DNA from: Ignavibacteria bacterium
GTDB taxonomy: Bacteria > Bacteroidota > Ignavibacteria > UBA10030
Reading direction: 5' to 3'
DNA: 64,000 nt
Assembly (NCBI GenBank): GCA_016873755.1
Contig: VGWB01000001.1
Coordinates: 3,387-67,386, forward strand
The position numbers and the translations under genes were made by a program. The notes under the pieces were generated by a model. That model was given only the letters and a program-made list of their open reading frames with translations, did not search any database and was not told the DNA's origin. Below are positions 7,926 to 9,308 of this stretch, piece by piece. How positions within the stretch are numbered: the stretch's first letter is position 1; every line of letters begins with the position of its first letter.

Positions 7926-9308
7926 ATGAAGACGTATGAACTCCAGGATGTGGCAACGCCCAACCTTCTCGAAGACACGTTTCCGTATTCCTTGCCGCCA
8001 GTGATCAAGTTCGAGGGAAAAATTCACGAGCTGATCGACGGCAAGATTGTGGAGTTCGATCCGAACGAGGTGAAAACGAGGGAGATTCATATCACCGACA
8101 CGACGTTTCGAGACGGCCAGCAGGCGCGTCCGCCATACAAGAAAGATCAGATGGTTCGCCTATACGAAATGATGTCGCGCCTGGGAGGTCCGAACGGTGT
8201 GCTGCGTCAGTCTGAGTTCTTTCTCTACACCAAGAACGATCGCGAAACCATCGATGCTTGCAGGGCGCTGAATCTGAGGTATCCGGAGATCACGGGCTGG
8301 ATCCGAGCGAACAAAGGAGACTTCCGGCTGGTGAAGGAAATGAACCTGAAGGAGACGGGCATGTTGACGTCTTCTTCCGACTATCATATCTTCCACAAGC
8401 AGAATCAGACGCGCAAGCAGGCCATGGATCAGTACGTGGACGTCGTACAGGCAGCGTGGGAGGCAGGGATCCGCCCCCGGTGCCATCTGGAGGACGTCAC
8501 GCGGGCTGACCTTCCAGGTTTCGTCCTCCCCTTTGTCCAGCAGCTCGAGCGGTTGAGCGAGCAGGTGCCAGATCATATGAAAGTCAAGATTCGTCTGTGC
8601 GACACCATGGGATTCGGAATCTCGTACCCGAATGCGGCAGAGCCTCGCTCGATTCCGAAGCTCATCTGGCGCCTGCGTCATGAGTGCGGCATCACGCCGG
8701 ACCGGCTCGAGTGGCATGGTCATAACGATTTCCACAAGGTCCATATCAACGGGGTAAGCTCGTGGATCTACGGCTTGAACGCATTGAACACAACGCTCTT
8801 CGGTTTCGGCGAGCGGACAGGGAATCCGCCGCTGGAAGGGGCGATTATGGAATATGTGGCACTCAAAGGCGGCCTCAACGGTGTCAATCTTCCTGTTATT
8901 ACGGAGATGGTGGAATACTACGAGCGGGAGATCGGCACACATCTCGCGTCGAACTATCCATTTGTCGGCAAGGACTTCAATACCACCCGCGCTGGGATCC
9001 ATGCAGGAGGCCTCCGAAAGTTCGAACAGATCTACAACATTTTCGACACCGCGGCGCTGCTGAACCGTCCTCCCCGTGTGTCAATCACCGACAAGTCCGG
9101 CTCCGACGGAGTCGCTTTGTGGGTGAACGAATTTCTCGGTCTCAAGGGCGATGAACGGTTGACGGTGATGAAGGTCTCCAAGATCTTCCGCTGGGTGATG
9201 GATCAATACGAAAAAGAAGGCCGCATGTCATCGATCACCGACGAGGAGCTTGAGGAGCAGGTGAAAGCGCACTTGCCGGAGTATTACGCCAAACACAGAA
9301 AGAACTGA
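7926..9308 (+). CDS. DRE-TIM metallolyase, i.e. a pyruvate-carboxyltransferase domain of the 2-isopropylmalate / homocitrate / citramalate synthase type. It has no LeuA-type C-terminal regulatory domain.
   Basis: The '[11 protein letters not shown]' substrate/metal-binding motif and the 'WHGHNDFH' (HxH) metal-binding motif are both present. Length is 460 aa, with a ~55-aa N-terminal extension. RBS 'GAAGGAGGGA' precedes the start. Confidence 0.75.

Follow-up and report, generated by a model that had tools for sequence, protein, structure and literature searches.

What is a carbon-carbon bond-forming synthase doing among genes for amino-sugar metabolism? The question is raised by a gene at 7926..9308 (+ strand) of a 64,000-nt stretch of DNA (the window) from an Ignavibacteria bacterium (GTDB lineage Bacteria; Bacteroidota; Ignavibacteria; UBA10030), namely positions 3,387-67,386 of the forward strand of contig VGWB01000001.1 in assembly GCA_016873755.1. 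An original prediction, made from the letters of the window, had placed here a Claisen-type enzyme of the DRE-TIM superfamily and linked it to amino sugars. Family and link both stood, the latter as synteny across phyla, but Re-citrate synthase (Re-CS), the family to which sequence comparison firmly assigns the protein, had been missed. We find further that the gene belongs to a subclade in which a conserved loop of the putative thioester-donor site is altered and an acyl carrier protein (ACP) gene often lies beside the synthase gene. The explanation that we favor, with about even chances of being right, is a citrate-forming Claisen enzyme, specific to this subclade, that uses a dedicated ACP as acetyl carrier and is tied to amino-sugar metabolism.

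Membership in the Re-citrate synthase family

The gene is an ATG-started open reading frame (ORF) of 460 aa, whose product comprises an N-terminal extension (residues 1-53), a TIM barrel (approximately 55-314) and a helical accessory region (320-460). The size given in the original prediction was borne out, together with its two signatures, an 11-residue motif (residues 56-66) and HGHND within EWHGHNDF (262-269). The lack of a LeuA regulatory domain also held: Pfam recognised one domain only, HMGL-like (residues 54-322, 75 bits), and gave no match to LeuA_dimer (PF08502) in the synthase. Scores against curated NCBIfam models for isopropylmalate, citramalate and homocitrate synthases fell far below their cutoffs; the best was nifV, at 115 bits vs. 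a cutoff of 463, with a second homocitrate synthase model at 88 bits vs. 414 (both of the TIGR02660/TIGR02146 set) and the LeuA and CimA models at 42-104 bits vs. cutoffs of 450-950.

The closest characterised enzymes are two Re-CSs described as "known and isolated" in a paper that calls Re-CS oxygen-sensitive (PMC12016533). BLASTP aligned the synthase with Syntrophus aciditrophicus SYN_02536 at 51% identity (target residues 4-454) and with Clostridium kluyveri CKL_0973 at 45% (target residues 3-456), vs. 25-29% for LeuA, CimA, NifV (29%) and the second, HM1_2993-type class of Re-CS, all of these identities being slightly too low because the reference sequences were machine-read from the PDF of Table S1 of PMC12016533. 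The homology to the characterised enzymes is full-length, covering the C-terminal ~90 residues as well as the N-terminal extension, where P12, F19 and F29 are conserved. The extension (~55 aa) had been thought unique; because the alignment spans it, it is a hallmark of the family, and only a 12-residue insertion within it sets the subclade apart. All Re-CS motifs are kept, including the 11-residue motif at residues 56-66, CHxED, EWHGHND, GERTGN and AGIH. The synthase has RDGQQ where enzymes of the LeuA/CimA/NifV type have RDGEQ. With these relatives, that is LeuA/isopropylmalate synthase, CimA, NifV, Lys20/homocitrate synthase and methylthioalkylmalate (MAM) synthases, it shares the DRE-TIM barrel with its accessory subdomain, the Asp and HxH metal ligands and the catalytic Arg and His; it differs from them in its low identity, in lacking LeuA_dimer and in other motifs on the oxo-acid side.

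In a bootstrapped neighbour-joining tree of 90 sequences the C. kluyveri-type family was monophyletic at 100% bootstrap, apart from LeuA, NifV, HM1_2993-type and other outgroups. By sequence, the synthase is thus a firm member of the C. kluyveri-type Re-CS family (EC 2.3.3.3), for which K05942 is the KEGG ortholog (PMC11964587). With its family known and close homologs (77-96% identity) automatically named citrate (Re)-synthase by one pipeline, that of JGI, the gene is in itself no novelty. The NCBI label on close homologs is 2-isopropylmalate synthase. Thousands of metagenomic copies so labelled are Re-CS relatives, and correcting the label affects how the tricarboxylic acid (TCA) cycle and the leucine pathway are reconstructed for Ignavibacteria, Bacteroidota, Planctomycetota and Gemmatimonadota, among other phyla.

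Among solved structures, the sequence of the synthase matched best a Leptospira citramalate synthase (E = 2.6e-20) and then homocitrate synthases; no close relative of the synthase, therefore, has a solved structure. An AlphaFold model of low confidence (pLDDT 59), built from a shallow alignment of sequences at 77-96% identity, served for secondary structure and fold class only. It contains eight beta/alpha units followed by the helical accessory region, and its top fold matches were homocitrate, citramalate, MAM and isopropylmalate synthases (E ~1e-10), with HMG-CoA lyases ranking below all synthases.

A subclade with an altered donor-site loop

A scan of one genome per species yielded 80 loci with relatives of the synthase (numbered with the prefix L; taxon names are the record titles of metagenome-assembled genomes), in two groups. 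Loci of the first group, at 64-87% identity to the target, come from Bacteroidota, Gemmatimonadota, Latescibacterota, Planctomycetota, Spirochaetota and Thermodesulfobacteriota, and those of the second, at 50-57%, from Syntrophales, other "delta-proteobacteria", Nitrospirota, Omnitrophota, Lentisphaerota and anammox Planctomycetes. In the tree the first group forms a single clade (74% bootstrap), with both characterised enzymes outside it; we call it the target subclade. It accounts for 21 of the loci, covering about eight phyla, and the remaining 59 are other family loci.

Of the 125 positions conserved to 95% or more in the characterised-type clade, the subclade keeps 119 (61 of these 119 are Re-CS-specific), and because of this retention its enzymes probably perform the same basic chemistry as characterised Re-CS, with oxaloacetate as the oxo acid. 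What sets the subclade apart lies elsewhere. The 12-residue insertion in the N-terminal extension (approximately residues 35-46) is specific to it, and is predicted as a beta-hairpin (33-44) in the low-confidence AlphaFold model. The H-x-D-G-x-x-K loop of accessory subdomain I, invariant in the other Re-CSs, reads H359-A-G361-G-L-R-K365 in the target. Of 20 subclade sequences, 18 have Gly for Asp at position 361, and the residue at K365 varies across the subclade, whereas the loop Asp is 100% conserved in the 59 other family loci and in all outgroups, LeuA and NifV included. Basic residues have been gained as well, R364 beside the loop and R260, R134, R52 and K416 elsewhere. The accessory subdomain that bears this loop caps the active site of the partner chain and is essential (PMC9860122). 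Taking together the changed loop, the gained residues and this capping role, we read the thioester-donor site as specifically remodelled in the subclade. The "Asp304" named in the literature is a residue of a different enzyme and not the counterpart of D361. The subclade holds no characterised enzyme, and its altered loop and its linkage to ACP, beta-helix protein and NagB genes, described below, are new to the searchable literature.

Many Syntrophus-type Re-CSs (L037, L044, L049, L061 and most of the 50-57% loci, at 580-630 aa; also SYN_02536) carry a C-terminal extension of ~150 aa. It matches the PDC/Cache-type sensor domain PF22673 (54.5 bits vs. a cutoff of 27), is absent from the target subclade, and suggests small-molecule regulation of the Syntrophus-type enzymes.

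Conserved gene neighbourhood

To count neighbours, all 80 loci were searched by tblastn with the cluster proteins of the window and with their equivalents in other phyla. An AcpP-like carrier gene lies beside the synthase gene in 14 of the 21 subclade loci and in none of the 59 others, Fisher P = 7.7e-11, a value that overstates the independence of loci drawn from related genomes. A beta-helix protein is encoded nearby in 13 of the 21 (DUF4954 in 6, an alternative GlmU, alt-GlmU, in 7), NagB in 8 and an ADP-forming ligase in 2, again vs. none of the 59 in each case. The subclade neighbourhood is thus one of ACP, beta-helix protein and NagB, rather than the TCA genes or housekeeping synteny found with other Re-CSs.

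The ACP gene is almost always directly upstream of the synthase gene, at a gap of 6-160 nt, and the order is always (NagB) - beta-helix protein - ACP - synthase. Several arrangements occur around this core. DUF4954-ACP-synthase-NagB is found in L005, L011, L090 (Odoribacter), L091 and L094, where NagB occupies the same slot after the synthase as the second NagB copy of the window (19-nt gap there); DUF4954 lies on the opposite strand beside NagB-ACP-synthase in L012, L013 and L021; NagB-altGlmU-ACP-synthase is the Planctomycetota form (L015-L017); and a bare ACP-synthase pair, with neither beta-helix protein nor NagB nearby, occurs in L025 and, in reverse order, in L019. ACP linkage is found likewise in L005, L006/7, L090, L091 and L094. 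That arrangements vary while linkage persists implies repeated rearrangement without loss of the linkage. The NagB genes of the Planctomycetota and Gemmatimonadota modules pass the NagB equivalog cutoff.

Some neighbours bear on acetate and central metabolism. Acetate-activating enzymes recur among them, and in L013 the gene directly behind the synthase is one for acetate kinase; in L012 that place is taken by an Ldh_2 malate/lactate dehydrogenase; genes of the PIG-L and YdjC deacetylase families or NagB-like genes are near in L013 and L094. A canonical Si-citrate synthase (Si-CS), which we sought in all loci sampled, was found only in L008, 3.4 kb from the synthase gene. In our searches of the searchable literature we found no paper that combines ACP, NagB and citrate synthase in one cluster.

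Several further observations concern these neighbourhoods. After the acetate kinase in L013 (10763-14252, a Latescibacterota genome) comes a 784-aa protein with a NagB-like region and a weak PIG-L (N-acetylglucosamine, GlcNAc, deacetylase) signal. Genes for an AP_endonuc_2 protein (xylose-isomerase-like TIM barrel) and a GFO_IDH_MocA-type oxidoreductase lie just upstream of DUF4954 in two unrelated loci, L006/L007 (5120-7547) and L090 (5547-7837), and may extend the module by a sugar-modifying part. Neighbours of the Syntrophus-type genes (aspartyl- and histidyl-tRNA synthetases, AspRS and HisRS, and ComEC) reflect lineage synteny and not functional linkage. In L077 and L089 (Brocadiaceae / anammox Planctomycetes) a sucC-like gene directly follows the Re-CS gene, a TCA-cycle context unlike that of the target subclade; a recurrent gene cluster, c75, adjoins sucC in the anammox loci. 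In L028 and L032 (Binataceae) a distant gene of the Si-CS family, 27-28% identical to the L008 citrate synthase, lies on the opposite strand just upstream of the Syntrophus-type Re-CS gene, and could encode a citryl-CoA lyase or a methylcitrate-synthase-type partner.

Partner proteins of the synthase

The string of same-strand genes that contains the synthase gene in the window runs, on the + strand: a DUF4855-ROK sugar-kinase fusion (207..2306, 699 aa; Pfam and NCBIfam), ACP (2485..2727, 80 aa), ADP-forming ligase (2733..4877, 714 aa), NagB copy 1 (4895..5701, 268 aa), a DUF4954/DUF6819 protein (5904..7892, 662 aa), the synthase, and NagB copy 2 (9328..10140, 270 aa, 63% identical to copy 1), with intergenic gaps, in order, of 178, 5, 17, 202, 33 and 19 nt. 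Both NagB proteins (glucosamine-6-phosphate deaminase) are bona fide, at 394 and 423 bits for TIGR00502 vs. a cutoff of 237. The synthase gene had been described as embedded between them; this needs amending, in that its direct upstream neighbour, 33 nt away, is the DUF4954/DUF6819 gene. The ACP and ligase genes had gone unmentioned.

The window ACP is AcpP-like (PP-binding 57.5 bits; TIGR00517 79.6 bits vs. a cutoff of 70.45), has the phosphopantetheine site DLGADS, and exactly matches a record with the name "acyl carrier protein [Ignavibacteria bacterium]". ACPs of the other modules carry the canonical DLGA[D/E]S serine site and likewise score as acyl carrier protein. Bacteroidota and Ignavibacteria have two ACP paralogs, 42-51% identical: an 80-aa type, always ahead of the ADP-forming ligase, and an 82-aa type between DUF4954 and the synthase. 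Both are present in L091 (7202-7444 and 10000-10248) and L094 (9001-9243 and 6408-6656); the window has the first ("type A", 2485-2727). L091 also has a holo-ACP synthase gene beside the cluster. Among the 150 best representatives of the synthase we found no fusion of ACP and synthase.

The ligase is a fused alpha-beta protein of the ADP-forming acyl-CoA-synthetase family (Pfam, NCBIfam), with its best score as an ADP-forming CoA ligase for acetate or hydroxy acids; 5 nt separate the start of its gene from the ACP gene, and its phosphohistidine loop, SHTGSLAG, is intact. Loops are intact too in the ligases of L010, L023, L091 and L094, and the ACP-ligase pair is conserved in L010, L091 and L092-L095. 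The ligase is the candidate ACP-loading enzyme.

DUF4954 accompanies the synthase in L005, L006/7, L090, L091 and L094 in addition to the 6 subclade loci counted above. In the window the protein is a beta-helix with weak similarity to the left-handed beta-helix (LbH) and a C-terminal helical domain. Single-sequence, profile and fold searches gave no PDB match for it; Foldseek returned generic beta-helices only (E > 0.07), and we drew no inference from its AlphaFold model (pLDDT 69, conserved core below 50). In Planctomycetota its slot is filled by TIGR03991 "alt_bact_glmU" (320 bits vs. a cutoff of 225), whose LbH domain matches ST0452 (2ggo) and GlmU acetyltransferase domains. The searchable literature makes only incidental mention of DUF4954 and DUF4855.

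A proposed ACP-bound acetyl donor

The ACP linkage specific to the clade, the remodelled basic loop, the acetate-activating neighbours and the Si-CS coexisting in L008 lead us to propose that the acetyl donor of the subclade enzymes is probably a dedicated ACP and not the ordinary acetyl-CoA pool. ACPs are acidic, and for that reason the gained basic residues would fit an ACP partner. The acetyl group would be held on the phosphopantetheine arm of ACP instead of on free CoA. It would be loaded by the adjacent ADP-forming ligase from acetate and ATP or, alternatively, by the beta-helix protein acting as an acyltransferase that exchanges acetyl with glucosamine phosphate (GlcN-phosphate) or GlcNAc-phosphate. 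The synthase would then convert acetyl-ACP and oxaloacetate to citrate and holo-ACP, and NagB would deaminate GlcN-6-phosphate. An uphill acetyl exchange could be pulled by the strongly exergonic condensation, and a separate carrier would insulate the exchange from the highly acetylated CoA pool.

In net terms, the acetyl group and the ammonia of an N-acetyl amino sugar would pass through citrate and 2-oxoglutarate into glutamate. One GlcNAc gives one acetyl and one ammonia, which with oxaloacetate would provide one glutamate with both its skeleton and its nitrogen; if the proposal is true, this meeting of acetyl and ammonia in glutamate would explain why a citrate synthase is found among nagB genes. 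We infer this direction of flux and this physiological role, as we do the oxo acid and the donor carrier. If true, the scheme would be a new kind of link between the breakdown of amino sugars and the central metabolism of carbon and nitrogen, and would offer a first clue to what DUF4954 and the alternative GlmU family TIGR03991 do. Somewhat short of an even chance, in our estimate, is the wider possibility that this is the first enzyme of the LeuA/Re-CS superfamily to act on a carrier-bound thioester, within a widespread, undescribed pathway. Formed together with the dedicated ACP, a beta-helix or GlmU-like transferase, NagB and an ADP-forming acetate:ACP ligase, this pathway would hold acetyl from N-acetyl amino sugars (or from acetate) on an ACP pool insulated from acetyl-CoA, and pass it on to either citrate or a new N-acyl amino sugar.

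Acetyl-ACP-dependent citrate synthesis is not described in the searchable literature, but two known systems invite comparison. In citrate lyase (CitDEF with CitC), the chemistry of citrate, acetyl and oxaloacetate takes place on a protein-bound thiol carrier, and a ligase loads the acetate. The likeness is one of analogy only, with no homology: the carrier here is a standard AcpP-type ACP with phosphopantetheine, and the ligase is an ADP-forming member of the succinyl-CoA-synthetase superfamily. None of the cluster proteins has a CitE (HpcH-type), CitF or CitD domain, and we rejected a citrate-lyase analogue on that count. The second system, ATP-citrate lyase or citryl-CoA synthetase plus citryl-CoA lyase, joins a ligase of the succinyl-CoA-synthetase superfamily to a partner of the citrate-synthase type. 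The window also has such a ligase in the same operon; it differs in scoring as an acetate/hydroxy-acid type and in being present in a minority of modules, and the partner is of the Re-CS and not the Si-CS type.

A number of observations weigh against an ACP donor tied to amino sugars. Besides the relatedness of the sampled loci, noted above, the 74% bootstrap of the subclade comes from a neighbour-joining tree alone, and the confidence of the synthase model is low. An adjacent ACP gene is lacking in 7 of the 21 subclade loci (L014, L018, L022, L026, L027, L029 and L050), two of which have short flanks (514 bp upstream in L029, 4 bp downstream in L050), and also in L008, a close relative at 82% identity. 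Loss of the loop Asp and ACP adjacency do not coincide throughout, since L025 and L035 keep the Asp yet have ACP. In the window itself the ACP gene lies 5.2 kb upstream and encodes the ligase-paired paralog, with no synthase-paired one present, and in L092/L093 the ACP-ligase pair occurs beside a GH38 gene with no synthase genes nearby. For the loading route through the beta-helix protein, comparison of DUF4954 with the LbH domain of alt-GlmU by hhalign gave a probability of 28% only and no demonstrable acyltransferase homology, and transfer of acetyl from amide to thioester is thermodynamically uphill (an estimate, not a computed value).

Alternative explanations

A first alternative is an ordinary Re-CS using free acetyl-CoA and oxaloacetate, with ACP serving the beta-helix protein or the ligase, and with co-transcription matching citrate and 2-oxoglutarate to the ammonia released by NagB. 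The 45-51% identity to characterised enzymes, the 119 conserved positions kept, the K05942 naming by JGI, the loci that lack an adjacent ACP and the ACP-ligase pairs found away from synthase genes all fit such an enzyme, and the LbH acyltransferases LpxA and LpxD do use ACP. We nonetheless find it doubtful. The tightest linkage in the module is that between ACP and synthase, which persists in L019 and L025 where beta-helix protein and NagB are missing; the donor-site loop, altered in this subclade, shows no change in any other branch of the superfamily; and L008 already has a canonical Si-CS. Many of the host phyla (Gemmatimonadota, Pirellulales), moreover, are aerobes that normally have gltA, which counts against an ordinary oxygen-sensitive Re-CS. 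If the ACP does serve the synthase, its cargo might have another fate: the product of condensing an ACP-bound acyl group with an oxo acid, a citryl- or alkylmalyl-type acyl-ACP, could escape hydrolysis, stay on the ACP and be moved by the beta-helix or GlmU-like enzyme to the amine of GlcN-phosphate made by NagB, to form an N-acyl amino sugar or nucleotide sugar of an unusual kind. The four core genes would supply exactly what such a biosynthetic module requires (a source of amine sugar, a carrier, an enzyme for C-C bond formation and an LbH transferase), the GlmU-like protein has acetyltransferase-like and nucleotidyltransferase-like domains, loss of the Asp beside the catalytic His could, to judge from the sequence, impair thioester hydrolysis, and lipopolysaccharide-related genes are near in two loci (GT9 in L012, a WaaP-like kinase and PlsY in L016). 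NagB, however, is normally catabolic, as is the context in the window (ROK kinase, NanE, GH38); neighbours such as acetate kinase and members of deacetylase families suggest turnover of acetate; sequence conservation across phyla is very high (64-68%), unlike that of variable surface-glycan genes; and we know of no such N-acyl amino-sugar compound. We regard this outcome as unlikely.

The functions first proposed for the synthase fare worse. It had been suggested to act like NanA, as a pyruvate-releasing aldolase on a keto-deoxy sugar acid, or else to condense acetyl-CoA with a sugar-derived 2-oxo acid. Aldolases and lyases do occur in the DRE-TIM superfamily, the fold matches include HMG-CoA lyases, and the amino-sugar cluster has NanE beside it; but the DmpG-type aldolase model NF006049 scores only 20 bits vs. 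a cutoff of 229, the oxo-acid-side strands and 61 Re-CS-specific positions are shared with the characterised citrate synthases, and the neighbourhood suggests acetyl and oxaloacetate rather than keto-deoxy acids. We rejected an aldolase identity on the model score and the conserved Re-CS positions, and consider either activity very improbable. That the gene is not simply a biosynthetic leuA or cimA, the outcome by which the original prediction was to fall, is clear from the tree. A LeuA, CimA or NifV that has lost its regulatory domain could appeal to the NCBI label and to the weak nifV and LeuA model matches, yet such an identity, which we rejected, is scarcely credible in view of the missed curated cutoffs, the 25-29% identity, the separation at 100% bootstrap, RDGQQ in place of RDGEQ, and a 64-kb window with no leu, ilv or nif genes.

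Other features of the window

The DUF4855-ROK fusion that opens the string has the uncharacterised DUF4855 at residues 27-359 and a ROK-family kinase at 384-688; by its domains it is a probable amino-sugar kinase. In L001 a 719-aa hydantoinase-A/BadF-like ATPase gene lies just upstream. Convergent with the synthase string, on the - strand, are NanE, N-acetylmannosamine-6-phosphate 2-epimerase (10236..10976; Pfam NanE 195 bits, NF002231 259 vs. a cutoff of 189), and a GH38 alpha-mannosidase (10977..14090; Pfam), the latter a matter of lineage synteny.

Within the 64-kb window there are no TCA genes either, and its remainder is ordinary chromosome. An Rfam scan of the whole window gave no match, promoter and terminator scans gave signals no higher than in shuffled sequence, and the structure of the 202-nt spacer (5702-5903) is not unusual (z = 0.59). 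Farther along, 14421-24704 encodes a 1866-aa BNR/sortilin-repeat protein with a type IX secretion system (T9SS) C-terminal sorting domain and, after it, a pair of proteins that combine a caspase domain (Peptidase_C14) with CARDB or Glucodextran_B-like domains. The ORF of an SSF sodium:solute symporter (24853-26613) and that of a 704-aa Amidohydro_3 protein (26286-28400) overlap by ~330 nt; because of this overlap the true start of the Amidohydro_3 gene is probably further downstream. The order GH38 - SSF - Amidohydro_3 recurs in L092/L093.

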